Positions 1 through 53,837 of a stretch of DNA of 53,837 bases are shown here, piece by piece. A program made the translations under genes and the position numbers. The notes under the pieces were generated by a model that saw only the letters and a list, made by a program, of their open reading frames with translations, did not search any database and was not told the DNA's origin. The first letter of the stretch is position 1. Each line of letters opens with the position of its first letter. The DNA is from a virus (Duplodnaviria > Caudoviricetes), in IMG/VR virus record IMGVR_UViG_3300025018_000016, positions 1 through 53,837 of that record. One strand, 5' to 3'.

Positions 1-35
1 TCTGTGTTAGTAGCAATATCTTCTGTGTTAGTAGC
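1..35. repeat. Terminal direct repeat (35 nt), identical to 53803-53837; circular or permuted assembly
   Basis: tctgtgttagtagcaatatcttctgtgttagtagc occurs at both ends. The overlap lies inside a 21-nt tandem repeat. Confidence 0.85.
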
Positions 36-557
36 TACTCTGTCTTTGATAGCACCTGCTTCATTACTTAAATATACGTCTGTAACAGAACCTTCAGGGA
101 ATGTACCTACAGAAATGTTTACAAGTGCATTATCTATATACCCTTTTGTTGCCAAATGGTTTGAAGCTGTGGGTGTGACTGATACAATACTACTTAAATA
201 ATTTTTGATACCGGCAATTGTTTGATTACCTGTGAGTTTTACGTTTGTAGAAGTATCAATTGATTTCAGTTCTTCTAATATGCCCTGAATTGTATTGGCA
301 GTTCCTCCACTTAAAGGAGTAGCTCCTATTTTATCCGCTCCGCTTGATCCGTCAACAATAGATTCTAATTCTGATATTAAATAAAATAATTTGTCCGTAT
401 CATCTGGAGTTCCGTCTACTGCAAGAACAATACCTAATAACGCAAGCGATTCATTTACTGCTTTCATTAATGCGTCAATATCTGCTTTTATTTCATTAGG
501 ACCACCGGTTGATGTTGATGGTTGTCCTGGTGTACCTGTAAAAGTTCTTCCAATCAT
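1..557 (-). CDS. Tail fibre/spike protein, N-terminal part (continues across the window end into 53837..52905)
   Basis: Read by hand: ATG at 557 after AGAAAGGA. Open frame MIGRTFTGTPGQP...VKLTGNQTIAGIKNY...HLATKGYID...VATNTEDIATNT runs to base 1. It lies directly downstream of the nozzle gene. Not in the ORF track. Confidence 0.75.
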   Translation of the reverse strand, partial: MIGRTFTGTPGQPSTSTGGPNEIKADIDALMKAVNESLALLGIVLAVDGTPDDTDKLFYLISELESIVDGSSGADKIGATPLSGGTANTIQGILEELKSIDTSTNVKLTGNQTIAGIKNYLSSIVSVTPTASNHLATKGYIDNALVNISVGTFPEGSVTDVYLSNEAGAIKDRVATNTEDIATNT

Positions 558-13504: not shown

Positions 13505-13528
13505 TTCGCAATATGTGACGATTATGAA
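13505..13528. repeat. Cassette-boundary site A: ttcgcaat-atgtgacg-attatgaa
   Basis: Member of the 8-bp-spacer inverted-repeat family. Overlaps the MTase-1 stop codon. Confidence 0.7.
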
Positions 13529-14457
13529 TTAATGTATGCAAATATGTGTGCTAATACATCAACTGTCCACCCATCGCCTAGTAGACTTTTAGCTTCATTT
13601 ACGGACAGACAACTTGTATATCCTTCTGGTACAGTTTGACAGCGTTCTGATTCTATTTGAGTTAAGTATCTAACGCCTTTATAAATGTTACGATCGTAAT
13701 TAGTTTTGTCTATTTGCTCTGCGCTCATTCCTTTGTAATTTTTATCATAATCTGCTTTGCAGTTCAAATAATGTTGCTTATCATTAAAAACAATATTTGT
13801 AAATCCTGAAGAATACCATCTGTGAAATATTTTTAGTGGTGTTACTAACGGCCTACTATCACTTTCTAGCAACGTCCTAGCTTTTTTGTTAATTACATAT
13901 CCACTAGCAAGTATTGATTGCAATTTTATTTTTTTATCTTTTGGTTGTGGTATATCAACAAACATCATTCCTAATAAATCAAGTCGTGTATAAATATTTG
14001 TCCAATATAGTCTTGGCCTTGATTGCGCTGATACTAAATCACTATTAATTGCTATAGGTTGAACATTTAGTTGGTTAGTTATATAAGCGTAAGAATTAGT
14101 CTCCATTGCTACGTTTTCAAGTAAAAAATATTTAGGATTTATAAAATTAACTATATCCCTGTAAATGAAAAACAATCTAGATTTATCACCTTCAAGGCCT
14201 TTTTTGTCTTTGTTTGCTTGACTAAAATCTTGGCAAGGGCTACCTCCAATCACCATATCAATACTGCTAAAATCAATAGTCCAATTTTTCCATTTTGTAA
14301 CATCGCCTAGCTGTATAGTATCTGGGTAATTATGTTGTGTACATGTGATAGCATGAGGTTTTATTTCGCTTGAATAGTATTTGTCAATTTTAATACCGGC
14401 TCTTTCTAACGCTATTCGTCCACAACTCATACCATCGAATAAACTTAATACATTCAT
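13522..14457 (-). CDS. DNA (cytosine-5) methyltransferase 1
   Basis: VLSLFDGMSCG (motif I), GGSPCQ (IV), LLENV (VI), QSRPRLYW (VIII), LGDGW (X). Start at ATG 14457 after RBS. Confidence 0.92.
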   Translation of the reverse strand: MNVLSLFDGMSCGRIALERAGIKIDKYYSSEIKPHAITCTQHNYPDTIQLGDVTKWKNWTIDFSSIDMVIGGSPCQDFSQANKDKKGLEGDKSRLFFIYRDIVNFINPKYFLLENVAMETNSYAYITNQLNVQPIAINSDLVSAQSRPRLYWTNIYTRLDLLGMMFVDIPQPKDKKIKLQSILASGYVINKKARTLLESDSRPLVTPLKIFHRWYSSGFTNIVFNDKQHYLNCKADYDKNYKGMSAEQIDKTNYDRNIYKGVRYLTQIESERCQTVPEGYTSCLSVNEAKSLLGDGWTVDVLAHIFAYINS

Positions 14458-14468
14458 TATATTTTCCT

Positions 14469-14492
14469 TTCTCAATTTCGTGCTATTGCACT
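14469..14492. repeat. Cassette-boundary site B: ttctcaat-ttcgtgct-attgcact
   Basis: Abuts the MTase-1 RBS and overlaps the stop of the upstream gene. Confidence 0.7.
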
Positions 14493-21027: not shown

Positions 21028-21662
21028 TAATCTACCTTCTTCATTTGTACAACATTTGACGGTTGCCCTGCATCTTCTAATGTTACTTGTTTGTTTGCCT
21101 TTTGAAACCCTTTCAAGGTTACATGTGTTTCTAATATGTTTGGAATAGAAATATGTTCATCCAAATAACCTTCACCGAATGTACTTATAACTTTAGAATT
21201 AAAGCTTTCGCTGTAGTTTCTTACAGAAGCATCATTACTGTTGATTAATAATAATTGGCTAAGAATAGCTGCGTTAAATTGAGCATCAGTCCACTTACGA
21301 ATATAGTAATCTTTCATTTGTAGTTTATACTCGTAGCCGGTAAACAATCTTTCAACTGCGGTTGTTTTTTTAATTTTAATGGCCCACTTGCTATTATCTG
21401 TGGTCTTGTCTGTAAGTTCCCAATTAACATCAACTTCTACCATAATGTTATTAGGGATAATGTGGCTCAAATAGTCTGAATAGGCTGCACGAATTTTTGT
21501 TACTGTGTCAAGATAAGATTGTTTTAAAATAATTTTCTCTGTGATTTGCATATCCCCTATTGGCTTTGCATTGACTTGTCCGGTTCCTTCACCAAATAAT
21601 GCAATCAGGTTACATGTTCTTACTAATTCCTTATCGTCTAATATTAATACATATTCACTCAT
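21027..21662 (-). CDS. Phage metallopeptidase-like protein lacking HExxH
   Basis: W...QFNAAILSQLLLI followed by F...I..FG resembles the putative phage metallopeptidase layout. Confidence 0.4.
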   Translation of the reverse strand: MSEYVLILDDKELVRTCNLIALFGEGTGQVNAKPIGDMQITEKIILKQSYLDTVTKIRAAYSDYLSHIIPNNIMVEVDVNWELTDKTTDNSKWAIKIKKTTAVERLFTGYEYKLQMKDYYIRKWTDAQFNAAILSQLLLINSNDASVRNYSESFNSKVISTFGEGYLDEHISIPNILETHVTLKGFQKANKQVTLEDAGQPSNVVQMKKVD

Positions 21663-22443
21663 ATTTTTTCTCCTTTTTATAATACATTCTAAGTTTTTTT
21701 ATAATTTCTCCACCGTAATCATTTTCACATAATTCGATAAAATACATTACGTCATATATTCCGTTTTCTAAATCTATTTCGTGATTTTTAGCAAATTCTT
21801 TTCTGCCAAACTCACAACTACCCGTTAATTTATTGTGCCATTCAAAAAATTTCATTGCTGGATATTTCACACCTTTTTCAAACTCATTGATAAAATATTC
21901 AATACGTTCTTCTTCGCTCATGTTGTCATAAATTTTATTCATTAGTGCTACTCTTGCTTTTGCAACTGTTTCTCCATGCGCAAACAAATTACCATGCTTG
22001 ATTATGTAGCAAGGAGTTAGTGTTAAGTCTATATTTACTGTTGACCCTAATGCTACGTTTAATTTTATTTTATCAATAATTGTATTTACTCCATCAATTT
22101 TGTAAATATGTTTTCCATTTATGCTTTTTATTCCATCGCCATCGCCATCGCCATAGCCATAGCCAGAGCCAGAGCCATCGCCAGAGCCATAGCCATAGCC
22201 ATCGCCATCGCCATAGCCAGAGCCATCGCCATCGCCATCGCCAGAGCCATAGCCAGAGCCAGAGCCATAGCCATAGCCAGAGCCATCGCCATAGCCATAG
22301 CCATAGCCATAGCCAGAGCCATAGCCAGAGCCATAGCCAAAGCCAGAGCCAGAGCCATCGCCAGAGCCAGAGCCAGAGCCATCGCCAGAGCCAGAGCCAT
22401 CGCCAGAGCCATCGCTTACTTTTACGAATTCTAATACATCCAT
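21655..22443 (-). CDS. Gly-rich (G-S/Y/D)n repeat protein
   Basis: About 95-aa GSGDGYG tract followed by a globular domain (AHGET..A, WHNKLTGSCEFGR). Confidence 0.8.
   Translation of the reverse strand: MDVLEFVKVSDGSGDGSGSGDGSGSGSGDGSGSGFGYGSGYGSGYGYGYGYGDGSGYGYGSGSGYGSGDGDGDGSGYGDGDGYGYGSGDGSGSGYGYGDGDGDGIKSINGKHIYKIDGVNTIIDKIKLNVALGSTVNIDLTLTPCYIIKHGNLFAHGETVAKARVALMNKIYDNMSEEERIEYFINEFEKGVKYPAMKFFEWHNKLTGSCEFGRKEFAKNHEIDLENGIYDVMYFIELCENDYGGEIIKKLRMYYKKEKKYE
22133..22414. repeat. Hexanucleotide tandem array (gccatc/gccata/gccaga)n
   Basis: Directly visible. Encodes Gly-Asp, Gly-Tyr and Gly-Ser on the minus strand. Confidence 0.95.
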
Positions 22444-28396: not shown

Positions 28397-28420
28397 TTCG
28401 CAATTTATGACTATTGTGTG
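28397..28420. repeat. Cassette-boundary site D: ttcgcaat-ttatgact-attgtgtg
   Basis: Overlaps the MTase-2 stop and abuts the UvrD RBS. Confidence 0.7.
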
Positions 28421-29301
28421 TTTAAACCTTTTAAAATGTGTGCTACAACATCAACAGTCCATCCATTTCCTAATAGCTTCCCAGCATTATTTTTACTAAC
28501 GATGGATGTGTATCCTCTTGGAACTCCTTGGAGCATTTCGCATTCATTAACAGTTAGTTTTCTGTATGTTTTGTTGTCTTTCGTGATATTTAGGTCAAAT
28601 AAGCTTGCACAAATAGTAGGACAATTACCAGCCACGTCGTATACTCTTCCTCTTTGCCAAGTTTGTTTTCTATTATTATCTTTTGGATTAATAGTGATAA
28701 TGCCATCAAAGCTGGTGGTTGGAGCATATTCAGTTCTATCAAGGAAAAATTGTAAATCTTTATCATATGGTAAGTCGTCTATGATATCACCAATGACTAA
28801 GCTTTTACGCTCCCAAGGTTGGATTGTTATATTCGTCCAGTAGTACCGTTTTCTTATATGACCCGTAAAATCTCTGCTGTCAATAAAAGCTCTGTTAACA
28901 CCCATTAGTTCATCTATTTTATCTGCTATATCATCTGTCATTCTTACATTTTCAAGTAAAAATTTTATGTTAGGATTAATGCCTTTCAAGTGATTCAGTA
29001 TGTCGAGATATACTAAAAACAATTTGCTTCTTTTATCATCAAAATTTAACTTTTTACCTGCTATTGAAAACCCCTGACATGGAGAGCCTCCTATTAATAA
29101 ATCTATGCTTTTCCAGTCGATATTCCAATCTCTCCAATTCTCTATATCTCCCATTTGTATGGTATCTGGATAGTGGTGTTGCGTTACTTGAATTGCTACT
29201 TCGTCAATTTCGCTGGCATAATAGTTATCAACATGAATACCTGCTCTTTCCAATGCCAACTGACCACAACTAATTCCATCAAATAAACTTAGTACATTCA
29301 T
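28411..29301 (-). CDS. DNA (cytosine-5) methyltransferase 2
   Basis: VLSLFDGISCG, GGSPCQGFS, LLENV, RKRYYW and LGNGW motifs. Start ATG 29301 after AAGGAG. Confidence 0.92.
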   Translation of the reverse strand: MNVLSLFDGISCGQLALERAGIHVDNYYASEIDEVAIQVTQHHYPDTIQMGDIENWRDWNIDWKSIDLLIGGSPCQGFSIAGKKLNFDDKRSKLFLVYLDILNHLKGINPNIKFLLENVRMTDDIADKIDELMGVNRAFIDSRDFTGHIRKRYYWTNITIQPWERKSLVIGDIIDDLPYDKDLQFFLDRTEYAPTTSFDGIITINPKDNNRKQTWQRGRVYDVAGNCPTICASLFDLNITKDNKTYRKLTVNECEMLQGVPRGYTSIVSKNNAGKLLGNGWTVDVVAHILKGLNTQ

Positions 29302-29321
29302 GTTTAAAATCTCCTTCTTTT

Positions 29322-29345
29322 CTCTCAATATCGTGCTATTGCGCA
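29322..29345. repeat. Cassette-boundary site E: ctctcaat-atcgtgct-attgcgca
   Basis: Upstream of the MTase-2 RBS. Spacer 7/8 identical to site B. Confidence 0.7.
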
Positions 29346-29519
29346 TCAATTTTCTTCCGAGTCAATTTCTACCCACTCAACAATATATCTACCTTCAAGT
29401 AGTGATTTCCTTTGAATCGCTTGGGCTACTGCAGAAAACGTAAGACCTCTTTTTCTTGCTAACCATTCTATCGCTCCATATGTACCTACAACTTGTTCAT
29501 TATTTGTAGTGTCGTACAT
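29346..29519 (-). CDS. Small DNA-binding-like protein (MYDTTNNEQVVGTYGAIEWLARKRGLTFSAVAQAIQR...)
   Basis: Read by hand. NUMOD1/HTH-like. Start codon uncertain. Confidence 0.5.
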   Translation of the reverse strand: MYDTTNNEQVVGTYGAIEWLARKRGLTFSAVAQAIQRKSLLEGRYIVEWVEIDSEEN

Positions 29520-32963: not shown

Positions 32964-33101
32964 TTACTCCTTCTTTGATTTAATGTTTTTAATTAGTTCT
33001 TCTAGTAATAAATTAACCGGCCATCCACGTTTTATTGCTTCTTTTTTTGCTAAATCAATAATTTTCGGGTCTAATGTTGTTACAAAGCGTTTTCTTATCA
33101 T
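32964..33101 (-). CDS. Ribbon-helix-helix regulator (MIRKRFVTTLDPKIIDLAKKEAIKRG...)
   Basis: Beta-strand plus two-helix pattern, RBS AAAGGAG. Confidence 0.75.
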   Translation of the reverse strand: MIRKRFVTTLDPKIIDLAKKEAIKRGWPVNLLLEELIKNIKSKKE

Positions 33102-33125
33102 GATATCAACTCCTTTATGTGCATA

Positions 33126-33155
33126 ATAATAGCACACATAAGCATACATAGTCAA
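33126..33155 (-). promoter_or_regulatory. Promoter TTGACT-18-(TGc)TATTAT with cata repeats (possible RHH operator)
   Basis: Heads the recombination/replication operon. Confidence 0.6.
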
Positions 33156-33164
33156 TAAGCAAAA

Positions 33165-33197
33165 TAAAAAGAGCACCTAATTAAAGATACTCTTTTT
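33165..33197. terminator. Terminator aaaaagagcac-ctaattaaa-gatactcttttt ending the late operon
   Basis: Imperfect inverted repeat with A and T tails. Confidence 0.65.
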
Positions 33198-33268
33198 AAG
33201 AAGAAGAAATATGCAGGAAGAAAAACAATGTACTTTTAGTATATATGCTTTCTTAAATTAAAGCAATA

Positions 33269-33550
33269 CTAAAATTCGGACCAAAAATAAAATAATTCAT
33301 CGTCATTATTTGTAACAAGAGAATAACAAGGGCTATTTTTATCCCATGAAAAAGATGCGCCGTTAGGCATAAAAGCATAATCTCCATTAATCGTTAATTC
33401 AATATCTGATTTTGCAGTAAATGAAATTGCGCTTGTATGATTAAATTTATTGGCTGCCATAAACGCTGCCAGTAAATCAGTTCCCTCTACGCTTGTTTGT
33501 ACTGCTCCTAATGACGTTAAAATTCTTACAGGTCTTAATGTTTCTTTCAT
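33269..33550 (-). CDS. Hypothetical protein
   Basis: 93 aa with RBS AGAGGAG. Confidence 0.6.
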   Translation of the reverse strand: MKETLRPVRILTSLGAVQTSVEGTDLLAAFMAANKFNHTSAISFTAKSDIELTINGDYAFMPNGASFSWDKNSPCYSLVTNNDDELFYFWSEF

Positions 33551-33565
33551 TATTCATTACTCCTC

Positions 33566-34192
33566 TCAATATTTGATTTTTGTGTATTTGTCATAGTATC
33601 TTTTCATAAAAACAGCAATTTGTCCCTCTAGTGTTGAATTAGAAAAACCAATTCCATCGTTCAAACCTTCCTTGTACATCCATGCCCATGCCATTCTTCC
33701 CCACATAGGAATTACGCTTAAGTCGATATCAACAATAAATTGCATTGGATCTTCTGAAGAATAAAATTCTCCATCGTGTGAATTCCAGTAATTTGACTCA
33801 TTGCCTTTATATCGTTTTGTTCTTATTTCATAATGCAAATGAGTACCTGTTGACGCTCCTGTGTTGCCCATATAGCCAATTATGTCACCGCACTTGATAG
33901 ATTGTCCTTCTTTTATAATTACCTTGCTTAAATGGCCATAAACTGTGCTGTAATCTAAGTTTTTATCGTCTAAAACAATGCGATTACCGTAAGTTGTGCT
34001 TACATCTACAAGAGCTGCAGTTGAATCATGTGTTGCAAAAATAGTATCACCATCAACTCTAAACTTCTCCGGAGCAATATCTATGCCATCATGAAAACCA
34101 TCGCCTAGTTCGCGAGGACCATACGGTGAAGTTATAGCGTGACTTTTGCATGGCCATATAGTATAAAACTCAGTGTTATTATAATTACTCAA
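33566..34192 (-). CDS. M23-family peptidase (probable endolysin)
   Basis: ITSPYGPR, HDGIDIA (HxxxD), YGN, YGHL and GNTGASTGTHLHYEIR (HxH) motifs. Confidence 0.9.
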   Translation of the reverse strand: MSNYNNTEFYTIWPCKSHAITSPYGPRELGDGFHDGIDIAPEKFRVDGDTIFATHDSTAALVDVSTTYGNRIVLDDKNLDYSTVYGHLSKVIIKEGQSIKCGDIIGYMGNTGASTGTHLHYEIRTKRYKGNESNYWNSHDGEFYSSEDPMQFIVDIDLSVIPMWGRMAWAWMYKEGLNDGIGFSNSTLEGQIAVFMKRYYDKYTKIKY

Positions 34193-34206
34193 TTTTTACT
34201 CCTTTC

Positions 34207-34896
34207 TTATTTTGCCATTACCGATCTGCTTCCATCGCTATTTATTTGATAATGTATTCCAAAAGTAATTAGCCCTGCGTCATCAGGATAAGTATCTTCT
34301 TCGTCTGTTGGATCTCTAAATAAAGTAAATATACATTGAGCCCCTATAGATAATTCGGATCCTGGAATAACATCAAATTCTACAACAAGACTTTTCCATG
34401 CTGTTTCTTCTGTGTTATCAATTGCTACAGTAATTGTATTAGTTCCGGTAAATGTCTCATTTGTATTTTTAATTTCATATCTCATTTGCCACTTAATGTT
34501 TCCGGCAGCTGATGTTGTAGGGCACCAATGTATATGAGGTCTTAAGTCTGTAGATTCAGCGTATCCATGAAGAAGTTCAAAACAACCGTCTAAATATTCT
34601 GCGGTAGAACCACCATTAAATCCATATATTTTTGTAGCGGATCCAATAAAATCAATTAAGTCTGGGGCAGATACACCTGCACGGAACACAGAAGGTATAA
34701 TTGGTATATCATCCCATAAAGAAAGTGCGTTAAATCCTGAATCAATAGCATTCCATTCTTTTGTTATTGAATTATAATATAATTGATCACCTTGATTATT
34801 TTCTTCCAACACGGCTCCCATGTTTTTTTTACCAATTATATCTCCTTCTGGTGGAGTAAACCCTAATTCTTTTATTTTGCTATCAAATTTAAACAA
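34207..34896 (-). CDS. Putative virion/tail accessory protein
   Basis: 229 aa, beta-rich, with HGY.E.TDLRPHIHW. Lies in the late operon. Confidence 0.5.
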   Translation of the reverse strand: MFKFDSKIKELGFTPPEGDIIGKKNMGAVLEENNQGDQLYYNSITKEWNAIDSGFNALSLWDDIPIIPSVFRAGVSAPDLIDFIGSATKIYGFNGGSTAEYLDGCFELLHGYAESTDLRPHIHWCPTTSAAGNIKWQMRYEIKNTNETFTGTNTITVAIDNTEETAWKSLVVEFDVIPGSELSIGAQCIFTLFRDPTDEEDTYPDDAGLITFGIHYQINSDGSRSVMAK

Positions 34897-34945
34897 TCCA
34901 ATTGCTCCTTTCTTGTTGATTGTTGGTATTTTAAAACTTTGTTAC

Positions 34946-34969
34946 TTCGCAATTATAACCTATTGGGAA
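34946..34969. repeat. Cassette-boundary site F: ttcgcaat-tataacct-attgggaa
   Basis: Near-perfect arms, 1 nt from the stop codon of 34971..35318. Confidence 0.75.
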
Positions 34970-34970
34970 C

Positions 34971-35318
34971 TTATAAAATCTTATCCATCCATATAATAAA
35001 TGGACTAATTATCGCAAACCATATTAACCAAAATGGTAAGCATGCTTGACCTTGTAGGTTAAATGGTATTTTACGGTAGTCCCATATCTGGTAATATTTA
35101 TTAAATATCTTGCCTGCTATAAACTCCAAAACAGTAATCAGACAGGCAAATATAAAACAGTTAACTAGATATGGTAAATTTAGCGTTAATATCAAACTGC
35201 ACAATACAAACGCTAAACCACCTACTAAGCCCATGCTACGGTCTGATGTATTGTCATACAAAACCTCTATGCCCATGTAGATTAAACCTCCTAAGATAAA
35301 TTTAATTATCCAAGTCAT
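34971..35318 (-). CDS. Multi-pass membrane protein (putative ABC-permease/CmpB-like family)
   Basis: F.LGG..YM.IE...SM.LVGG, IT.LEF..G..N....IWDY..PFN..GQ.CL.F..IW. Confidence 0.7.
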   Translation of the reverse strand: MTWIIKFILGGLIYMGIEVLYDNTSDRSMGLVGGLAFVLCSLILTLNLPYLVNCFIFACLITVLEFIAGKIFNKYYQIWDYRKIPFNLQGQACLPFWLIWFAIISPFIIWMDKIL

Positions 35319-35326
35319 TTAATCAC

Positions 35327-35875
35327 CTACTTAAACAATTCAGACATTTTTAATTCTGCTTCTTTTTTGCAAGCGGTAATATGTGCTTTTAAGTCTAACC
35401 CTAGTTTAATAATTTGGTCATTTGTGAAGGGATAGCAACCTACATCATTAATTGTCTTATGCTCTAATATCTCTTGCTTAGGCATTAAACCACTTTTGTT
35501 TAACAATGCAGTCAATACTAACCCTTGAATAGTGGCTTGATTTCCCATACCACTATCAAAAACCTTATCTTCACCTAAACAATTCGATACAAATCCACTT
35601 AATATTTTACTCGCACACTCATTACTGAATTCTTCATATTTTTTATTAGCGAATTGAGCTTGCCCTAGAGTAAATAACGCCTCAAAGTTATCCAACACAT
35701 ATTTTTCGATGTTGTCTCGTTCTTGAATAACAACGGTTATTTCGTCATATTCAAAAATGTCTTGTTCTTCTTTTTTGATTTTAACAACATTTTTAGTTAA
35801 ATTTATGGTTCGTATACCGTTATTTAGTCCACGAATCCATATTTTATCAGGTGTTATTGTTGATTGTGTTTTCAT
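35327..35875 (-). CDS. Tail-fibre chaperone-like protein (DUF4376-like C-terminus)
   Basis: EYDE N-terminal domain, then I.SGF.S..LG....FDS...Q..I.G. Confidence 0.5.
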   Translation of the reverse strand: MKTQSTITPDKIWIRGLNNGIRTINLTKNVVKIKKEEQDIFEYDEITVVIQERDNIEKYVLDNFEALFTLGQAQFANKKYEEFSNECASKILSGFVSNCLGEDKVFDSGMGNQATIQGLVLTALLNKSGLMPKQEILEHKTINDVGCYPFTNDQIIKLGLDLKAHITACKKEAELKMSELFK

Positions 35876-35893
35876 TTTTACCTCCTATTGAAA

Positions 35894-36049
35894 TTATTTT
35901 TTGTAAACAATAGTGTTATTTTTAAATGTTGTTTCGAGTGCATTATTAATCCAATTTCCACCATATACTTTAGGATTAATATCTTCTTGTCTATAGTAGT
36001 TGTCGTATGGATTATATGCGTTTCTAATTGTAATACTTATTTTATCCAT
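35894..36049 (-). CDS. Small Asn/Tyr-rich ORF (51 aa) containing GGNWINNA
   Basis: Read by hand, RBS AAGAGGA. Occupies the position where a DGR TR-RT would be expected. Confidence 0.45.
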   Translation of the reverse strand: MDKISITIRNAYNPYDNYYRQEDINPKVYGGNWINNALETTFKNNTIVYKK

Positions 36050-36110
36050 ATAATATCCTCTTTTCTATATGCTTGCTAGATTTACTAGGCACAAAAATTT
36101 TAATTTAAAA

Positions 36111-37391
36111 TTAAGCTACAATTCTAGAGCCGATATCCCGACTCCGATTGCCCGACGAACTACCGAGAGCCCAACACCGAGCCCCCGCAAACGCCCCACC
36201 ATACCAATCACCGCCCAAAAGAGCCCCGCGAACACCTGTTGAGCGATATAGGTAATCGCCTATTTTCGTGCTAGACGACCCTGTCGTCTGCTTTGGAAAA
36301 CTCGTGTAATTGTTCGTGGTGTTAACCACGAGGTTAGAAACATACCCACTTGCACTCGCTATAGGCTCTCCGATATATTGGTAATCTCCTGTAAATATAT
36401 CATCAACAAAACCGCTGTTTTTTCTACTTACGAAGATGCTGGAATCTGTTACATTTACACCATCGACCCATTTCCAAATATTGCCCCAGAAATTTTCAAT
36501 TCCACCATATCTAACAGAGCGTTGACCGTTATTCAGTACCCATCCACTGCCATTGCCAAGAGCTGATGTATCGCCTGTTGCTATTGCCATATTAGTTGAA
36601 CCATCATCGGTTAGACTTACTACACCTTGACCTACACGCTCCTGAGACTTGTAATCACCTATCTCAATTAACATCATCATTTGTATTGCTGCTACGGCAT
36701 TATTGTGCTGTTGTTGCCATCTTGTACCTCTGTTGTTAGCTAATTTTCTAGCATTTGAACGAGTCAAGTTCTGAGTATGTCCACTAATCGGTTTTGCTCC
36801 AGTAATTGAACTAAGCTTATCTCCTGTCCCCACTGTAAAGTCTGCAACTTGTGCATCATTTAAAATATAAGCACTTGCAGAAGAATCCCACAAACAACCT
36901 TCATATGTGCTAAAATATCTTTTAACTGGTAAGCCTGTCACATCGTCAATAAACCAAGGATGCAAAGACCATCCTGTATCTGTTTTAACGGTAGGAGATA
37001 TTAACGTTATAATCTCGTTATCTTCTACATAAGCTTTGTACCAAAAAGGCACATGTTCTGTCATGACCTGTCCATTCGTGCCATTTTCAACATAGTTACC
37101 GTCACCAAAGTAGGCGTTGACCGTTACTCCATCGTCTGCTAGATTGCAAACTCTACGTTGAGAGTATGGAGCGATTACTGCAAAGTCATTGACTGCACCA
37201 TTAACTCCAAATGTTTTGTTGATAGCTTGTCCTAATCTACGGTAAGTATCCGATGTAGGATTCCAACCGATTCCGAGCACGTCAGATAGTCCGACAAAGT
37301 CATTTAAATTTGTAACTTGTTGCGCAATCTGTTCCGATTGTGTAGTTAAATTTTTAATGTCTGATCTTAGTTTGTAAATTAATTCATCCAT
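36111..37391 (-). CDS. Mtd-like receptor-binding protein with C-type-lectin-fold C-terminal variable region
   Basis: GQVM, HPWF, YEG and GIENFWGNIWKWVDG motifs. Terminal LLGGDWYGGAFAGARCWALGSSSGNRSRDIGSR. Confidence 0.8.
   Translation of the reverse strand: MDELIYKLRSDIKNLTTQSEQIAQQVTNLNDFVGLSDVLGIGWNPTSDTYRRLGQAINKTFGVNGAVNDFAVIAPYSQRRVCNLADDGVTVNAYFGDGNYVENGTNGQVMTEHVPFWYKAYVEDNEIITLISPTVKTDTGWSLHPWFIDDVTGLPVKRYFSTYEGCLWDSSASAYILNDAQVADFTVGTGDKLSSITGAKPISGHTQNLTRSNARKLANNRGTRWQQQHNNAVAAIQMMMLIEIGDYKSQERVGQGVVSLTDDGSTNMAIATGDTSALGNGSGWVLNNGQRSVRYGGIENFWGNIWKWVDGVNVTDSSIFVSRKNSGFVDDIFTGDYQYIGEPIASASGYVSNLVVNTTNNYTSFPKQTTGSSSTKIGDYLYRSTGVRGALLGGDWYGGAFAGARCWALGSSSGNRSRDIGSRIVA
37321..37344. 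repeat. Cassette-boundary site G, in frame within the RBP gene: tgcgcaat-ctgttccg-attgtgta
   Basis: Encodes TQSEQIAQ at about residues 17-24 of the 426-aa protein. Confidence 0.65.
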
Positions 37392-37402
37392 AAAATACCT
37401 CC

Positions 37403-37642
37403 TTAAATTTTAATCCATTCTCCGTCCGTCATCTGGAAAAAGTCAGTAAACTCTTTTGTAACATCATCCCTTACTTTCATGATTGATCCATTGTTAATAG
37501 TTCCTCCATGTTTATCTATTAGTGGAGGGAATCCACCAACTAAGTCAGTTGTTAAACAATTATAACGCACTTTTTTGTCTTTGTTTTCTACATTTACCAT
37601 AATATCAATCTCCTTTATTTTACTTGTTATTAGATTCTGCAA
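37403..37642 (-). CDS. Hypothetical protein
   Basis: ORF in the late operon. Start uncertain. Confidence 0.55.
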   Translation of the reverse strand: MQNLITSKIKEIDIMVNVENKDKKVRYNCLTTDLVGGFPPLIDKHGGTINNGSIMKVRDDVTKEFTDFFQMTDGEWIKI

Positions 37643-37647
37643 CTAAA

Positions 37648-38016
37648 TTACTCTGCTATTGTTGTAAATGCTTGCCATGCACTCCATCGTGTATATTGTT
37701 CCATTGGTTCATCAGTTAAATGCCTTGCTCTTACTTCATATTCCGTTGCTGCGTCTAACGCCGGAGTTACATTAACTTCTTTGCCCGATGTCAAATCACT
37801 TTCATAAGCAACTACACCTGTTGAGGCTAGTCTAATTTGAACTTCTACACTGTCGCTTGTGTAGTCTATAAATGCCTGAGAAGTTTCTTGAATTTCTGCC
37901 CATGACCCAACATAACTTAATGTAGCGGTTCCAGTTGCTGTTATTATCCTTACTTTAACTTCTGTATCTTCTGTTGTCCTAATAGAAGCTTTTGCTATGC
38001 CTTGTGAATAAATCAT
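37648..38016 (-). CDS. Fn3/Ig-like virion protein (possibly the C-terminal part of a frameshifted gene)
   Basis: LDAATEYEVRARH...SAWQAFTT is the Fn3-type C-terminal pattern. Confidence 0.6.
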   Translation of the reverse strand: MIYSQGIAKASIRTTEDTEVKVRIITATGTATLSYVGSWAEIQETSQAFIDYTSDSVEVQIRLASTGVVAYESDLTSGKEVNVTPALDAATEYEVRARHLTDEPMEQYTRWSAWQAFTTIAE

Positions 38017-38122
38017 TTTCTTTCATAAAGTTAAGAGCTGGTTCAATATCTTTCTCAGACGCTATGTTACCTTCTGGTGGTATAAACCCTAAACCTCTTT
38101 GTATGCTATTTAATAAAAACAT
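37979..38122 (-). CDS. 47-aa ORF MFLLNSIQRGLGFIPPEGNI..., possibly the N-terminus of 37648..38016
   Basis: Read by hand, strong RBS GAAAGGAG. Shares LGFxPPEG(N/D)I with 34207..34896. Confidence 0.55.
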   Translation of the reverse strand: MFLLNSIQRGLGFIPPEGNIASEKDIEPALNFMKENDLFTRHSKSFY

Positions 38123-38141
38123 ATATTCTCCTTTCTTACAA

Positions 38142-38169
38142 TACGAGGGCCACTTTTCGCAGCCCTCGT
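38142..38169. terminator. Hairpin acgagggc...gccctcgt after the holin
   Basis: 8-bp GC-rich stem with a weak U tail. Confidence 0.45.
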
Positions 38170-38176
38170 TAAAATG

Positions 38177-38482
38177 TTATTTTTTCGTTATTGGTTCTAC
38201 AATTAATTCATGTGCTTTCAATGTTGCAAACCATACAACTACTGAATTAATAATCCATAATAAAATGCTGATCAATATACTTTGAAATGATAAAATTTCC
38301 TTTGCTTGTACGAGTGTTTTAACTGCCACTAGAATTATTGCGACAATTAATACAACCCACATAGTTTCATTGTCAGGTATGGTTCTGTCAATCAAGTTTT
38401 TAAATGCTTGAACAAATAGCCAACAAATAAATATCATTCCTGGAAAACTTAGTACATAATCAATATTCACAAAATCATTCAT
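38177..38482 (-). CDS. Holin
   Basis: 101 aa with three hydrophobic segments, in the lysis region. Confidence 0.65.
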   Translation of the reverse strand: MNDFVNIDYVLSFPGMIFICWLFVQAFKNLIDRTIPDNETMWVVLIVAIILVAVKTLVQAKEILSFQSILISILLWIINSVVVWFATLKAHELIVEPITKK

Positions 38483-38493
38483 TTACTCACTCC

Positions 38494-38757
38494 TTATCTA
38501 AACCGTTTTTTAAGTTCCTTTAATCGCTCTTTACCTACATATTTTACACCTTTGTTTAATCTACTGTCAAACAATAGGTCAGATAAACAAGAACAGTTAT
38601 CTTTATATTCCATAATTCTTTTTGCAATCACAGGACCAATATTGTCAATTTCTAATAACTGTTCATATGTAGCTTCTTGAATAGGTGTTTTTTCTTGCTC
38701 ATTAACAATTAAAACAATTAAAGATACAACCACAAGTGCAATACATATTTTACGCAT
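38494..38757 (-). CDS. ComEA-like helix-hairpin-helix protein with N-terminal membrane anchor
   Basis: ATYEQLLEIDNIGPVIAKRIMEY...DL....VKYVGKERL. Confidence 0.75.
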   Translation of the reverse strand: MRKICIALVVVSLIVLIVNEQEKTPIQEATYEQLLEIDNIGPVIAKRIMEYKDNCSCLSDLLFDSRLNKGVKYVGKERLKELKKRFR

Positions 38758-38758
38758 A

Positions 38759-39139
38759 TTACACCACCTTATGTATACGGTCGCAACGCTCTCTTATCTG
38801 TCTTGTTTCTGAATGGATAAAAGTTCTTAATTCTTTTATGTCTGCTGTGTTTGTGTCAATATCTTTGCGCTGCTCTTTTTGATTTGTTATCAACTCTTTA
38901 ATGTCTGATTTGTTTGCGTCCGTATCATTTTCAATAGTTCCCATAAACTTTTTTAATTCAGCATTTGACGTAATAATATTTTCAAGCGTTGCTGACATTT
39001 GCATTTCAGCTTTTGTCTTTTCTTCAATTGCCTTAGATTTACGGTCCCATGCTTTAGAAATTTTTGTTGCGATAAATGATAGAAACCCTCCTATTGTTCC
39101 TATGATAGCAAGTACTGTAGCAACTGTTTCAATAGGCAT
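38759..39139 (-). CDS. Membrane-anchored coiled-coil protein (holin-associated type)
   Basis: RBS AGGGAGG before MPIETV. One TM helix then heptads. Confidence 0.6.
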   Translation of the reverse strand: MPIETVATVLAIIGTIGGFLSFIATKISKAWDRKSKAIEEKTKAEMQMSATLENIITSNAELKKFMGTIENDTDANKSDIKELITNQKEQRKDIDTNTADIKELRTFIHSETRQIRERCDRIHKVV

Positions 39140-39158
39140 ATTATTTACCTCCCTTTCA

Positions 39159-42100
39159 TTAGTCTTGTTCGTATAATGCGTCATATTTTGCAATTAGCTG
39201 TAGTTCTTCAGATGTTAACAGTTCTCCGTTCATTGTTTTAATTGCAACAGAGTCTTGAAGCATTTGGATATCAACTAAAAGAGCTTTCTTTTCATCACCA
39301 CTTAATGTTGATTCTTTAATTGCTTTATTAACTCCATTTAGTTTTGTCATAGTTTTGTACATTTTTTTTATATAAGTATAATTTTTTGCAAAGTCTGCCG
39401 GATATTCTTGGTCTAATTCTCTATACTCAGCAGCTTTAACTTTTACTTCATTTGTATATTCATAGAAATCCTCTACATATACACTACCGGTATATGGACT
39501 TGCAATTAAACCTCGAACAAATGGCATATTACCTAATAATGTTTTTGCCGGATCTTCTATTTTTTCTCCTTTGCCTGTTGCTAAAATAATAGAGTCAATT
39601 GAGTTAAGCAAAAATCTTCCTGCTGTACCCAATGATTGCGTAATTGCATAGTCAACCATTCTAGGGCTTTCATTAAATGTCCTTCCATACTCTTTTGCAA
39701 ACTCTGATGTTGTAGTTCCGTACTGTAAATATTTAGGTCTGCTACTTTCTGAAAGAGGAACTATTGAACCTTTGTAAAACATTGAGTATCCTGAAGCAAG
39801 TTCAGAATGTACTTTGTAAACTTGTGGAATAAACTCAGGAAGTAACATTTCAATAACTCTTTCTTTGTAACCTTTAAAAGCTTTTGGGTCATTTTCTTTT
39901 AAATACTCAACCATTCTTTCTGTTCCTGACCCAAAGAATAGCCCTAATTCTTGTGGTTTTGGTATCTTAACAATTTCATCTCCAATAAATGCAATCCAGT
40001 ACATGTCTTTTGTATAGCGGTCTAGCCTATTATATCGCTCGTCATCACTATTCATTAAGTAAAGCATCGCTGAAAATGCTGCAAGCATACCTCCTTTGAC
40101 TAACATGTTTACTGGATTAGTTACTGCACTTCTTGCAAACTTGTCAACACCTTGAATGCTTGCGTTAAAGAAAGGTATTAATTTGTTTATTTCTCTTCCA
40201 ATGTAACCTGCTCTCATAAAGTCCATTAAATCTCTACTGTCAAGAGCTGCTTGAAGTATTGCGTTGTGTTCAGACATTCCTTTTTGTATGTTCTTATTGT
40301 AAGATTGTCTAAATTCTCCAAGTCTTGTTGAACTTTCTACCGCTTCATTAAGTCCACGTAAAGCGTCTAATGGCCTACTAATAACACCAAGCACGTTATC
40401 TGCAAAATCTTTTTCGTAAAGCTTTCGAGTGTCTTTTTTAATATAGTCTCTGTCGATTGCAGAAGCTGTATTGTTGATTGCTCCCGCCGATAACGCTTTG
40501 TAATAAAGATCAGTTTTGCCCATTTCTTCGTAAATACCTCTAACACTGTGAACAAATGGTATAAAGTTACTTTGAGAAAAAACAGATGCAGCAACGGTAT
40601 CTTTAATAAAGTTTCTAAGTACAAAAGCGTCACTAAACTCTGTTGCTCCTGCTCTTAAAACTCTTGCAGGAAATCCTAGTATTTTACCAATGATTTTTAA
40701 TTGCGGATAATCCGCTTGAGTAAACACTCTCAGCATATCCTTGTTATGTATCTCATAAAACTCTCGTTTTCCCTTGTTTAGAACAGTGATTACATTGTCT
40801 TTGTTTGGATACATATTAGGTTGGAATAGTGTTACTTTGTCAACTTCATTAGATATATCAATGTCGTAATTCTTTTTAATTAGCTCTGCTAATGTGTCGC
40901 CTTCTATTTCAATTGCTTTTATTGGTGGCGGTATTTTATCAAAATACTTCCCTGCTCCGTCTGCATTGTGATAATTAAACAAGGTTTTATTTGCTTCATT
41001 TACATCGATGGCATTATAAATAGAATATGTGTTTCTTACAATGCTTTCAATCGGGTTAATAATATCAAGATAACTTCCTTTTATTTTCATAATTGGATTA
41101 CCGGCTTTTGATCTTTTTCCGCTTGCAGCACTATTAATAACTCTGTTAAATGGCATGTAATATCTGTTGACTTCTTTTATTTGTTCATAAGCTTCAGGCG
41201 TAATCAAATCATTCATAGAAGCAATCTTTAATAAAGTGTCATTGTATTTATAAATCTCCTTAAGTGTTTTATTGAATTGAACATCATTTTTATATTTTGA
41301 TATTGTTGCATTAACGTCCTTGATGTCAATTCCTGTTTCAATACCTCGTTCAGTCAATTCGTTAGCTCTCATTGATACTGCGTAAGCCATAAATTCATTA
41401 AACATTTTTGATTCTCTTACAGGAGCAATTATTTCATACAAACCTTTTGTTAAAAAGTTTCCTGTTTTTGGATCAATCAAACCACGTTCCATAGCTGTTG
41501 TGGTTTTACCAATACCGCTTGTAACCGCCAGTCTTTTTTTAGTCATTGGGTCACTAGAAGGATTAACTTTGCCTACTACATCTCTAACAAAATTATAGAT
41601 AGGGTGATTAATGTCAACCATTGCAGTGTACAAGGTGCTGATAATTTCCTCAGGTTTAGTTATTTCATGTCTGCGTGGTCTTAATTGTACATTTGAAAGA
41701 ACTCTTTCGCTTGAATTCATTTTCATGTATTGATCCATTAATTCATTTAATGCACTTGTTAGTTCTTTAGTAACTTTATCTGTTTTAATTACATCTTCAA
41801 TTGCATTGTAAGTATAGATAAAGTTCTGTTGAGCAAGTTCCTTACTTTGAAGATAAGTACTGAAGAACTCTGCTATACCTTCTTGTATAACTTCTTTTTT
41901 TGTATACGTTTTTCTGCTTACAGGCTTACCGGCATTGTATAACTCACCGGCTATTAATGGATTAGCTGTTATTTTATTGGTCAAGTCAAAATGCTGATCA
42001 AACCAATGGCCGACTTCATGCATTAATACATCCATTTGTTTTGCGTTTTTTACTCTTATGATTCCAGAGGATTTAAAAATACCTAATGCATGTTGTCTAA

Positions 42101-45100
42101 AGTTGCCTTCTTTTACAGGAACTTCTAAAAACTTATCAATTAATTTTTGTGCGTCACTTAATCTAGCTTTTTCACCTTTCCCCACTCCTTGCATTGGATA
42201 AAGTTTTTGAACATATGTAGCTGCTGCTTTAGGTCCGTTGCTTGGCTTTCCGTCATTAATATCCGCAAGCAATAAATCTTCGTTAGTCGGCATCCATTTT
42301 AGCGATGAAGGTTTAGTTAATGCTTTTGGTTTTAATGAAATATCAAAATTTCCTTTTAATTCATACATTGAACTAGGGCTTGGTTTAACAGGAAAAGTTG
42401 CGCCTACTAAAAGACCATTTGAATCTTTAAATATTATCATCGGTTCATTAATAGCCTGGTATGCTGTATATTCTCCGTTAAAAGGTTGAAGTAGTTTTGT
42501 GTTATACATACGAGTAATTCCTTGGCCTGAAACTACAGTATATTTATTACGTGCATTTTTTTCTCCTACTAAGTCAATAAAATTACTTACCGGAACATAT
42601 TCATCACTCATGAACTTATTTAATTGAGCAATTGAATCAACTGATTTTTCTATTTTCAACTTTGTTGTTGGATCAATAGATGATACTTGTTCAATGTAGT
42701 TTGTAAGTTGTTTAAATTCATTTGGAGTTATAAACATACCACTATTTCCTTCTGTAGTTATATATTTGTATCCTTCAAAGTTAGTTACTACAATAGAGCT
42801 GTTTTTTACATAACTTGCAATGTTCTTTGGTATTTCTGCCATTTTAACTTTAATTCCTAAAGCATGAAGCGTTTCTGCTATAACTGTTGGAGAATTTAAC
42901 AATGTCATCGTTCCGTCATCAGGTATTTTCATTACAATTGTCTGCGCATCCATGTCTCGATTAGCAATTGAGTTAACAATAAATTCTTTCATGTCGTATG
43001 TATATCCGGATGCTGTAGCGTTTGGAATAATTAAATTGTCAATTTCTAATGTGTTATTTTCTATTGCTGCTGTTAATGCAGGTAAACTATGCCTTGCTTC
43101 AAGTGGGTTGCTTTTCGCTTTGCCATGTGACGCTCTAATCAGCTCATTAGAAGCTTTTGCTCCTGTAGCTATATCATTTGTATTGACCTTTGGATTAGAC
43201 GCTTTAATAGAGTCAATATCGTTGATTACGGGTTTACTTATAACTACTATCCTTGTATTGACTCCTGTCTTTCGGTCACTTTCTTTAAATGTTCCATCTG
43301 GTAATTGTTCATTTGTTTGATCTAGTCCGTCAAGCCATTCTCTAAATGCTGTTGCTTTTTTATCGCTTCTAAAGAAAGGACCTTCGCTCATAATCGCAAC
43401 AAGTCTGCCACCAGGTAAAAGATTGTTTTCATAAGCATACATAACATGCTCTATATCTTGGCTATTCTCGAAAGGTGGGTTCATGATAATTTTATTGTAT
43501 TGAGTTTTTACTTCTAAAGCATTATTTCCTACAACATTATGCCCTTTGTCTTTTAGCAATTGCGCCATTGAATTATTATACTCAACTACATCAAGTGTAC
43601 CTTTTGAAATCTTGTCAGCTATGTGTCCAACACCTGCGCTTGGTTCAAGAATTTTTTCACCTTCTTTGATGTCTGCAATTTCAATCATGTTGTCAACAAT
43701 ATTTTCAGGAGTAGGGAAAAATCCTTCAATCTTTTGTCGGGTGAACTCGGATTCTCTTTGCTTAATATTTCGCTCTATTTGAGTCTCTTTGCTTATCTTA
43801 GTACTGTTAAAGAAAGGTAAGTATTCTCTTAGTGCAGCTCTTAAATCTCCGTCAGTTTCAATTCCTAGTTTTTTTAATCGGTTAAAGTCTTGAATAGTAC
43901 TTTTAACACTTCCAAAGTCATTAACACCTTTACTTATAAGCTCATTCAATATTTCTTCAAACTTGTAAACAGGAAGATCATCTTGGTGTCTTTTTGCTGA
44001 ATTTAACGCAGAATTACTTTTTTGAATCATTCCTTTAATTTTAGTTCCTTCTTCAAGCATTTTTATTACATGCTCTTTATAAAGCGTTCTTACTTTAGCA
44101 AAATCTATTCCGTCAATAGTAACAGGTTCTCCTTTTAGCTCTCTGCGCTTTAATTCGCTCATATAAGCATCCTGATAGCCTTTTGTGACGTCATTTATAT
44201 AATCATGCTTTGCCCTGCTCATACGACCGTCTAGTGATTCAATTTGCGCTTTTGAATTAATCTTAGACAAGAACTTTAATTCTCCGCTATCTAAGGCATC
44301 GGCTATTTGATTGAGAACAGCTTGGGTTCTTTTCATTCGGTCACCATCCATTTGTGCACTTGCTGCCATTGCTGCACGTCTATTGGTATTGGTTTGTCTG
44401 CCGGCGTACTTTTCATCAATAGCTTTTTGCATATTGCTAGCTACTGTTCTAAGTCTATCAGCATTGCTTGTGGACTTATCAACAATGTTATCAACAGTTT
44501 CCGTCATGTTACCTTTAAGTGTATTTATTACATTGTTATATTTTTGAGTAGCTACGTCAATTGATTCAGTAGGAAAGAAGAATTTACCTTTCCAATATGA
44601 TCCACCTTCTTTTTTTACTACTTCAAGAATTTTAGACCACTCATTCTTTTCAATCCTGTCTGTTAGTTCAAACTCAAAAAGCTTGTTTCCTGTTTTTGTA
44701 TGTGTTCCTTCAACAAGTTTGCCTATTACATCTGCGCTGACTGCAACCTTATCCATTGCTTTAGCTTCAGGAAGTGACTGTTTTGCTGCTAATTTAAGAT
44801 CATCAAGTTTTCTTCTTTCTTCTGTGGTTAAAACTCTTGATTTCGAAGCTAGAATATAATCATCTAATGTTTCAGGATTATCTATTCTATTCTTCTTTTC
44901 CATTGAAGCTGTTTTTTTATCAATAGCTTCTTGTTTAATTTTGTCAACAATAGATTGGTACTTATCTTTTGTCAATCCCTCTTGAAGTTTTTTTACTTGA
45001 TCTCTTAATTGATTAAGCTTGTTTTCATGATTAAACCCGCTTGTTGAAATAGTTTTTGAATCGCTTAATGTAAATATAATATTGTTTAATTGTTCTTGAT

Positions 45101-52904: not shown

Positions 52905-53837
52905 TTAATCTGGAATATAAACGAATCCCCAATAAGTAGTTGTTGCGCATTGTAAAATAAAACCTGTTTCATATCTTGTTAATATTGGACAGTTAGATTG
53001 TACGTTTATTCTTTTTAACCCAGCGCCATCAATATTAAGGTTAAAAGCACCTGCGTTATTAATTGAGATTATCCATCCGCTGCCTGTAATATTTAATCTT
53101 TCAGTAGTTGGAGTAGCAGTGTCATTACTACTAGTAGCTAGTATACTATCACGAATAGTACTTCCGATTTTATATACAATATCCCAATCAGCAGAGGCAT
53201 CTGTATATACTTCAAATCTTGTGTTAAACCTTATTGGCCCAATTAGACTTGCTTCTACAGCTGGCGTTAACCACCCTGTAGTGGTACTACCAAATTTAAA
53301 AACACCGTCAATTTTTAAAGCTATCTCTATATTGGCTTGTGCTTTTACTAGCATTATAAACCCTTCGCCACTATACGAGAATCGAGATATCATGGCTTGA
53401 GTTGAAAGTGGAAAATTAGTAAACACTGCTGCTTTTTCAAGCCCCTGTAAGCTATCTACGCCGCTAGGGCGCATAGTAAAATTTACAGTTCCTTCGTAGA
53501 CCTCGCAGTAGCCCTTTGCTACAGTTGTGACCGCAACACCTTCGATATCGACTAATGGTTTTGCTGTTGCTCCGTTTCGAATAAGCGTCACAGCCCCGCC
53601 TGTAATCTCAGTACCTATGTAAAGTGTTAGTTTAGCGTTTGCAGATGCAGTTACAATGGTTATAACCTGTCCTGTTACGTCTGTTGGTACAATGGCATCG
53701 GATAAGTCTTCAATGGCGTTTGTGTTAGTCGCTATATCTTCGGCATTAGTCGCTATATCTTCGGCATTAGTCGCTATATCTTCGGCGTTGGTTGCTATGT
53801 CCTCTGTGTTAGTAGCAATATCTTCTGTGTTAGTAGC
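52905..53837 (-). CDS. Tail fibre/spike protein, C-terminal part (joins 557..1)
   Basis: Frame open from the window end through IATN(T/A)ED heptads into the 228-aa track ORF. Confidence 0.75.
   Translation of the reverse strand, partial: ATNTEDIATNTEDIATNAEDIATNAEDIATNAEDIATNTNAIEDLSDAIVPTDVTGQVITIVTASANAKLTLYIGTEITGGAVTLIRNGATAKPLVDIEGVAVTTVAKGYCEVYEGTVNFTMRPSGVDSLQGLEKAAVFTNFPLSTQAMISRFSYSGEGFIMLVKAQANIEIALKIDGVFKFGSTTTGWLTPAVEASLIGPIRFNTRFEVYTDASADWDIVYKIGSTIRDSILATSSNDTATPTTERLNITGSGWIISINNAGAFNLNIDGAGLKRINVQSNCPILTRYETGFILQCATTTYWGFVYIPD
53720..53837. repeat. 21-nt tandem repeat encoding IATN(A/T)ED heptads
   Basis: ttagtcgctatatcttcggca-type units, about 5-6 copies. Confidence 0.9.

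Follow-up and report, generated by a model that had tools for sequence, protein, structure and literature searches.

A receptor-binding cassette shared by two unrelated phage backbones, with an in-frame break in the protein neck and a variable region lacking its retroelement

Phages alter or trade the proteins with which they recognize their hosts in several ways. In the invertible segments of Mu (G), P1 (C) and p15B (Min), switched by Gin, Cin and Min, the crossover falls inside the fibre gene, between inverted-repeat sites that lie beside a serine invertase gene and enclose two opposed cassettes, and an accessory gene travels along. Promoter-plus-stem-loop elements (PeSLs) lie between genes, flank variable genes and occur in many copies per genome. 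That host-range genes are exchanged as modules is established, and T4-type phages, according to three reports (PMC3157838, PMC2839356, PMC4122927), swap adhesin and tail-fibre modules at short conserved stretches or domain borders. Diversity-generating retroelements (DGRs) also move, horizontal transfer being documented (PMC5758913). Here we analyse the IMG/VR virus record IMGVR_UViG_3300025018_000016, called the window (the record in full: 53,837 nt, rated 100% complete and bearing direct terminal repeats), and in it a block of four genes that starts inside the gene of a receptor-binding protein (RBP) and is bounded by two short sequences, G near the RBP start and F behind the last gene. A first-pass annotation had taken G and F for copies of a coding recombination site that swaps RBPs behind a constant leader; its sequence facts, the exchangeable block and the in-frame break stand, and the recombination site and the constant leader are not supported. 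With a probability of roughly 0.6, the cassette is exchanged by general recombination at a protein-domain junction and not at a dedicated site.

The extent of the block follows from comparison with other phages. Among 35 IMG/VR loci that encode a relative of the RBP, a single one is close: the 10.1-kb contig L001 encodes an RBP that is 92% identical in protein sequence, and the next best reaches 49%. By blastn, L001 4725-5926 matches window positions 37340-36127 at 90.4% over 1214 nt, and L001 8426-8458 matches positions 34973-34941 at 31/33 nt (94%, E 1.4e-7). DNA homology between the two is limited to these stretches, and its outer ends are the outer edges of G and F. Identity runs uniformly along the RBP gene (51-58 of 60 positions in successive intervals), the DUF4376 protein is 52% identical in amino acids to the product of L001 7208..7777 (tblastx and blastp), and the membrane protein at the end of the block is 55% identical to its L001 counterpart and 66% to that of a further contig, L038. 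Beyond G and F, tblastx and blastp of the window against L001 found no similarity: the block is neighboured in the window by a 3592-aa methyltransferase-containing giant, small open reading frames (ORFs), a 229-aa protein and an M23 peptidase, and in L001 by a minor tail protein, a BspA-type leucine-rich-repeat protein and unknowns. Because the G-to-F stretch matches L001 while the flanks are unrelated, the block is a horizontally shared module in two unrelated backbones. Its limits had been proposed from one sequence, as those of an exchangeable host-range module, and they coincide with the end points of L001 homology. GenBank phages contain no close relative of positions 33000-39200 by blastn, and their tblastn matches are all below 60% identity; a search for backbone relatives found none for the 229-aa gene downstream of F, and the search with a 302-aa gene of L001 returned that gene alone.

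The block is encoded on the minus strand, which holds nearly all window genes, in the order RBP, 51-aa ORF, DUF4376 gene, membrane protein. The RBP gene (P0001; 36111..37391), defined from its ORF and translation, encodes 426 aa starting MDELIYKLRSDIKNLTTQSEQIAQQ and matches PHROG 5302, 'tail protein', with E 5.9e-74. The 51-aa ORF (35894..36049) returned no match in family searches and sits where L001 has a template repeat and a reverse transcriptase. It is followed by the 182-aa DUF4376-type gene (35327..35875; phrog_1348), tail-fibre accessory or chaperone-like, whose PF14301 match (E 3.9e-5) is slightly below cut-off, and by a 115-aa, PF06541-like membrane protein (34971..35318; E 2.8e-10) with hydrophobic segments visible in the sequence. 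Site G is a CAAT-N8-ATTG palindrome at 37325-37340 with an extension to 37309, the whole encoding QSEQIAQQVTN on the minus strand and forming the 5' end point of L001 homology; the site proper, CAATCGGAACAGATTG (37340->37325), is translated as TQSEQIAQ, RBP residues 17-24 (codons Q18-S-E-Q-I-(A)), just as first reported. Element F is a 33-nt island at 34941..34973 on the minus strand, with a core, AGGTTATAATTGCGAAG, at 34945-34961; the shared module ends there on its 3' side. The palindromic site within it, CAATAGGTTATAATTG (34965->34950), starts 6 nt past the stop codon of the membrane-protein ORF and closes the block, again in agreement with the earlier description.

At its 5' end the homology with L001 breaks in frame, at RBP codon 18. 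The 17 codons upstream (37341..37391, minus strand) encode a leader, MDELIYKLRSDIKNLTT, that has no counterpart in L001, where the leader reads MGQDIIARGMAGNALA. Far from being the constant portion of the gene, as had been proposed, the leader is where the two phages differ, and among 5.8 billion proteins no other one of 234-746 aa shares residues 1-45. How does this junction relate to the rest of the protein family? The family is very large (at least 4230 proteins at E <= 1e-40 among 7998 candidates scored), ranges from 372 to 746 aa among 120 members listed, and carries various N-terminal Pfam domains (PF12571, PF18454, PF22337, PF03906 and PF01391). BLAST alignments to the RBP begin at residues 15-49 in 88 of 119 homologues. 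Upstream DNA was long enough for comparison at 29 loci; DNA homology breaks on the 5' side in 137 pairs of them, and 53 of these breaks fall at residues 10-39, at codons as diverse as 12, 15, 18 and 21-37; the others are mostly detection limits in diverged pairs. A common neck, ...IGDIQDLQQQISD..., stands behind three distinct N-termini in L012, L022 and L023, and the peptide SEQ(I/L/M) recurs at the neck in several homologues. An AlphaFold2 model of the RBP (mean predicted local distance difference test, pLDDT, 92.3) has a single helix at residues 2-34, of which the leader is part, preceding a globular body. Since family homology breaks cluster at this helix and the N-termini ahead of it vary, G sits in the N-terminal neck helix, the family-wide linker between anchor and receptor-binding body. 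Homology had been expected to switch exactly at the site; L001 does break at G and F, but the breaks of the family are scattered over ~25 codons.

A second cassette, comprising RBP, template repeat and reverse transcriptase, is 95-98% identical in three contigs with unrelated flanks (L004 5430-8562, L005 5601-8709, L006 182-3322). On the 5' side it breaks at differing codons of the preceding gene, within the part encoding the C-terminus, and its ends vary slightly, a pattern that fits general recombination and not a fixed site. Within the window RBP gene, contigs of three sequencing runs from the aquifer (X2, X3, X4) have an identical loose end at 36855, a sign that the habitat also contains a related RBP variant, diverging from this one mid-gene.

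Could G and F nevertheless be two copies of one site, through which a site-specific recombinase would cut out or replace the RBP block while the leader stays fixed? Each does lie at one end of the stretch held in common with L001, and the junction at G is in frame. Both extend as ATTGCG...AAGT(T/A)ACAAA on the minus strand, and these asymmetric extensions point in the same direction, making the pair a direct repeat. Past ATT GCG, site F reads AAG TAA in the frame of G, and a G-to-F join would give the in-frame IAK-stop that the first-pass annotation described. The motif pair inside the window alone is not clearly above chance: CAAT-N8-ATTG occurs six times versus 2.72 +/- 1.58 expected, a count of at least six being reached in 4 of 100 shuffles. 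Two of the six copies (14473 and 29326) precede paralogous C5-methyltransferase genes and count as one event because they belong to one methyltransferase-gene duplication, and another (40688) lies within the 3592-aa gene. The best local alignment of G and F, taken as 50-mers centred on the sites, has a score of 19, which is equalled by 2.8% of 20,000 random same-strand pairs. It is through L001, as end points of DNA homology, that both sites rise above chance. A terminator-like hairpin called over G (37319-37346) was set aside because it lies on the plus strand, antisense to all genes.

Against a site-specific event stands the state of the sites in L001. The counterpart of G there, CAAACGGAACAAATGG (CAAA...ATGG), has both palindrome arms altered, with one non-synonymous change (I to M); the counterpart of F, TAATAGGTTATTATTG (TAAT...ATTG), has an altered arm; and the two align with a score of 12 (p 0.63), the same as random pairs, compared with p 0.028 in the window. 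The annotation had looked to homologues to conserve CAAT-N8-ATTG, and none of the 35 related loci has the motif within 60 nt of the codon-18 position, although it occurs 18 times in their 296,251 nt overall. Neither a serine recombinase (PF00239, E <= 0.1) nor a tyrosine recombinase (PF00589) is encoded in the complete genome, and neither type was found in the fragmentary records of L001 and of L037, another contig that carries F. The L038 record has a serine recombinase ~4.8 kb from F and a tyrosine recombinase ~21 kb away; there is no consistent linkage of a recombinase to the F-bearing records. The window contains no second RBP-like sequence or alternative cassette. Contigs of the four aquifer runs (X1-X4) over 33000-39500 hold no G x F joint, with the limit that contigs drop rare variants, leaving rare recombinant molecules invisible, and that X3 and X4 bins without cover are uninformative; contigs span F (X2 record 5, X3 record 15) and G (X4 record 25) unaltered. 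Together with a leader that varies and family break points that range over many codons, these results bring the site-specific model close to refutation, and we regard it as highly improbable.

We therefore return to general recombination at the domain junction, and ask where the exchanged protein came from. A Foldseek search with the RBP model returned TaqVP (5vf4, E 4.5e-11, probability 1.00), then Mtd (1yu2, E 6.6e-4, probability 0.94), followed by formylglycine-generating enzyme (FGE) and TvpA; the RBP sequence itself has no Pfam or PDB match. The RBP is thus predicted from its model to have the C-type lectin / FGE-like fold of DGR variable proteins. In L001 a template repeat (TR; ~5975-6109) and the gene of a 334-aa reverse transcriptase (RT; PF00078 E 2.9e-18, phrog_1423 E 4.9e-108) lie directly 3' of the RBP gene, and an RT adjoins the RBP in 25 of the 35 related loci. 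The variable region (VR) of the window, at the 3' end of the RBP gene (36128..36235, minus strand), is adenine-poor and bears the footprint of DGR mutagenesis: in an alignment of 108 columns, 33 of them adenine in the L001 TR, it differs from that TR in 25 adenine columns and in 1 of the 75 remaining ones, and the VR of L001 differs from its own TR in 23 adenine columns and in none of the other 75. The last ~16 nt of the RBP gene differ from the L001 template at non-adenine positions as well.

The machinery that would produce this footprint is absent from the genome that bears it. A blastn search of the VR region within the window found no second copy and no TR, and the complete 53.8-kb genome has no PF00078 match and no tblastx match to the L001 RT. 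The VR is identical in contigs of X2 (record 7) and X3 (record 16). The RBP resembles the DGR variable proteins Mtd of Bordetella phage BPP-1 and TaqVP of Thermus in its fold, in its C-terminal VR and in template differences almost confined to adenines, whereas here the template sits in another contig, L001, and the genome has no RT; a complete DGR has its cognate TR and RT in the same genome. On this comparison the RBP was diversified by a DGR of the L001 type and is now without one; it is a DGR target protein, and the locus is not a DGR. Because the genome has neither TR nor RT, its VR is a stranded target. One could imagine an L001-like phage diversifying it in trans during co-infection, an idea that the data do not support.

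The downstream end of the block is marked differently, by a short non-coding sequence that recurs, in one copy each, in four IMG/VR phage contigs (the window, L001, L037 and L038). A core of 24-25 nt (AATAGGTTATWATTGCGAAGTAAC) is shared with L037, which has portal, scaffold and capsid genes and otherwise no similarity to the window or L001. L038 shares a 17-nt core (AGGTTAWWATTGCGAAG), located behind a DUF4376-like gene and the membrane-protein homologue mentioned above. Other matches to F within these contigs are within shuffle expectation, and no further true copy was found. A looser 17-mer occurs in 12 IMG/VR stretches, and the nine new ones, mostly in long open frames, were counted as chance because they have neither the flanks nor the cassette genes. 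A 22-mer of F has no match in JGI metagenome contigs, F has none in GTDB species genomes, its matches in GenBank phages and plasmids are at chance level alone (E >= 0.1), no Rfam family matches it, and a literature scan for it found nothing. F was also considered as a member of a motif family within the genome and rejected as such, its likeness to a site at 28401 (16/20) being within shuffle expectation; CAATAGNNNNAWATTG with at most one mismatch occurs seven times in the window versus 1.8 expected, the exact copies being two paralogous sites and one other. L041 has at 4001-4213 a degraded membrane-protein gene, truncated and interrupted by an in-frame stop; no F comes after it.

What might F do? 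It is better conserved than the adjoining coding DNA and on that ground is under selection. Its two variable core positions are positions 3-4 of a TAWWAT hexamer (TATAAT, TATTAT, TAATAT) flanked by invariant AGGT and TGCGAAG, a pattern that suits a -10 element. A sigma-70-type promoter scan called no site at F, and a plain promoter does not explain the invariant flanks or the hairpins that follow: in L038 F precedes, within 5 nt, a terminator-like hairpin with a T run, and then a holin-like ORF, and in L001 a terminator-like hairpin lies ~70 nt downstream. F itself has no consensus fold, with single-sequence z-scores of -0.2 to -1.5 and no conserved hairpin. Our tentative suggestion, to which we give somewhat less than even odds, is that F may act as cis-regulatory DNA where the fibre genes give way to the genes downstream.

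By analogy with PeSLs, F alone might instead be a portable junction element that gives recombination homology at the downstream end of tail-fibre cassettes. In the comparison of the window with L001, F is an island of identity amid non-homologous DNA; a 98-aa gene of L001 that the window lacks lies at the left edge of F, homology stops directly after ...GAAGTAAC, and L037 has F with no other similarity. Two reports describe PeSLs as mediating modular shuffling (PMC2839356, PMC4122927), and like the PeSL cassettes of T4-type phages this one has a conserved intergenic element at the module edge. F differs from these elements in being single-copy, in having no promoter-plus-stem-loop arrangement or conserved stem-loop, and in belonging to phages unrelated to T4; moreover, only four IMG/VR contigs carry it, and the related cassettes of L002 and L003 end without it. 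We consider this role unlikely. A wider version, in which F, maybe together with the in-frame neck junction, forms a docking element that lets unrelated backbones capture DGR-type cassettes, strikes us as less probable again. F would then be a non-coding 'cassette end' recognized by a host or phage factor, the 25-nt near-identity in L037 would mark another docking point, and a defined junction system would let aquifer phages trade RBPs that come already diversified.

We take the general shape of F to be reminiscent of unstructured repeat classes, and a further possibility is that a small RNA made from F imitates a CRISPR repeat of the host, as a solitary repeat unit or RNA anti-CRISPR. Such a role would account for base-for-base conservation among unrelated phages of one habitat. 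F is solitary, intergenic, 25-33 nt long and near-identical in unrelated contigs, and the terminator-like hairpins of L038 and L001 also speak for this reading. One report describes solitary repeat units in IMG/VR viruses (PMC10651486), and F is like them a solitary, intergenic, repeat-sized sequence common to unrelated viruses. The difference is that no cognate CRISPR repeat was found for F, in indirect array scans that were negative or incomplete: 185,579 species genomes hold neither an F-like two-unit array nor a single copy, and among metagenome arrays with three spaced ATTGCGAAG units none matches F upstream of the core, the best reaching 9/26 among the matches listed. We consider mimicry of a CRISPR repeat very improbable.

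We hypothesize that a tail-fibre cassette of DGR origin moves between unrelated backbones during co-infection by general recombination, and that break points pile up in the neck linker because only in-frame joints there would yield a working fibre. The palindrome at G would be a by-product of the Q-S-E-Q-I-A codons in a single phage. The RBP would have been diversified by a DGR whose template equals the L001 template at 74/75 non-adenine positions, after which the genome would have lost, or never received, template and reverse transcriptase, leaving a VR that is now fixed for that reason. F would be a separate, conserved, single-copy non-coding element of 17-33 nt at the cassette end. The comparisons show directly the shared module with its break points, the fold, the adenine footprint and the lack of RT, template and recombinase; how the recombination proceeded, which way the cassette travelled and what F does are inferred.

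Several observations weigh against this account. It has a single close relative to draw on, L001, and the break points consequently depend on one pair. G and F were chosen blind, and each proved to mark an end of the homology, which for G is improbable by chance: the probability that one of the five other motif copies falls within 8 nt of a given break is ~0.002. Accidental formation of a palindrome by the codons for SEQ(I/L/M), the conserved peptide of the neck, does not fully explain the coincidence at G. Rare recombinant molecules cannot be ruled out from contigs. The conservation of F (31/33 nt) is far above that of the neighbouring genes (52-55% in amino acids), and its copy in L037 stands in an unrelated context, so that its conservation calls for a function. 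The hairpins after F in L001 and L038, ahead of the next gene, suit a simple promoter poorly.

Set beside the described systems, the locus resembles the invertible segments in the idea of a fixed N-terminal part with varied C-terminal parts, and differs from them in that its sites are direct, it has no serine invertase and it contains a single cassette in place of opposed cassettes flanked by inverted repeats. Tyrosine-recombinase cassettes of the integron or shufflon kind would call for a conserved site at every cassette boundary and a PF00589 protein, and neither is present here. Nor is there a multi-copy intergenic promoter and stem-loop flanking variable genes. As these defining features were looked for and not found, the locus belongs to none of the invertase-switch, integron-like or PeSL classes.

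A different repeat brackets the block. Two copies of a 72-nt direct repeat (76% identity, E 3.4e-7), both on the minus strand, enclose a 3.2-kb stretch that holds it. In copy 1 (38070-38137) it takes in the ribosome-binding site of ORF 37979..38122 together with some 20 initial codons (MFLLNSIQRGLGFIPPEGNI). Copy 2 (34844-34914) begins 27 nt past F on the downstream side and comprises the ribosome-binding site of the 229-aa gene (34207..34896) and its first codons (FKFDSKIKELGFTPPEGDI). Nowhere else in the window do two different genes truly have one N-terminal peptide in common; the repeat may reflect a tail-docking peptide that both use, or a module insertion that left it as a scar. ORF 37979..38122 (47 aa) overlaps a 122-aa ORF (37648..38016), which has a weak tail-fibre PHROG match, in another frame and near an A-rich run. 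A frameshift or the splitting of one gene might account for the pair; at 37648-38122 no variant appears in contigs of the four runs.

Elsewhere in the window, the 5' ends of the paralogous C5 DNA-methyltransferase genes (13522..14475 and 28411..29349) are 79% identical, and CAATAGCACGAWATTG sits 15-24 nt ahead of the ATG of each (14473-14488 and 29326-29341), where it may be a shared operator or promoter element. The 3592-aa ORF spans 39159-49937 and has a central DNA-methyltransferase-like region (phrog_15406, E 2.5e-129) along with other conserved blocks. At 22085-22469, about 20 head-to-tail copies of a 12/18-nt unit overlap ORF 21655..22443 and extend slightly beyond its start. Tandem 21-nt units at both record ends (1-73 and 53719-53833) overlap the terminal repeat, and an ORF there (3..557 / 52905..53837) spans the record junction.

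No new recombination mechanism is called for by these findings, and F stands as an unexplained conserved sequence. The two points of interest, both small, are an orphan VR with the template footprint of another phage, and element F. The locus is a clean natural case of host-range hardware passing between unrelated phages: a DGR-diversified RBP gene, grafted in frame onto a foreign 17-codon anchor, that is now without the retroelement behind its diversity. A VR can bear the adenine footprint of a template carried by another phage, and for metagenome counts of DGR targets an orphan target need not imply a missing contig. For the RBP family as a whole, the comparison pinpoints the neck helix as the working graft point in a very large group of receptor-binding proteins.

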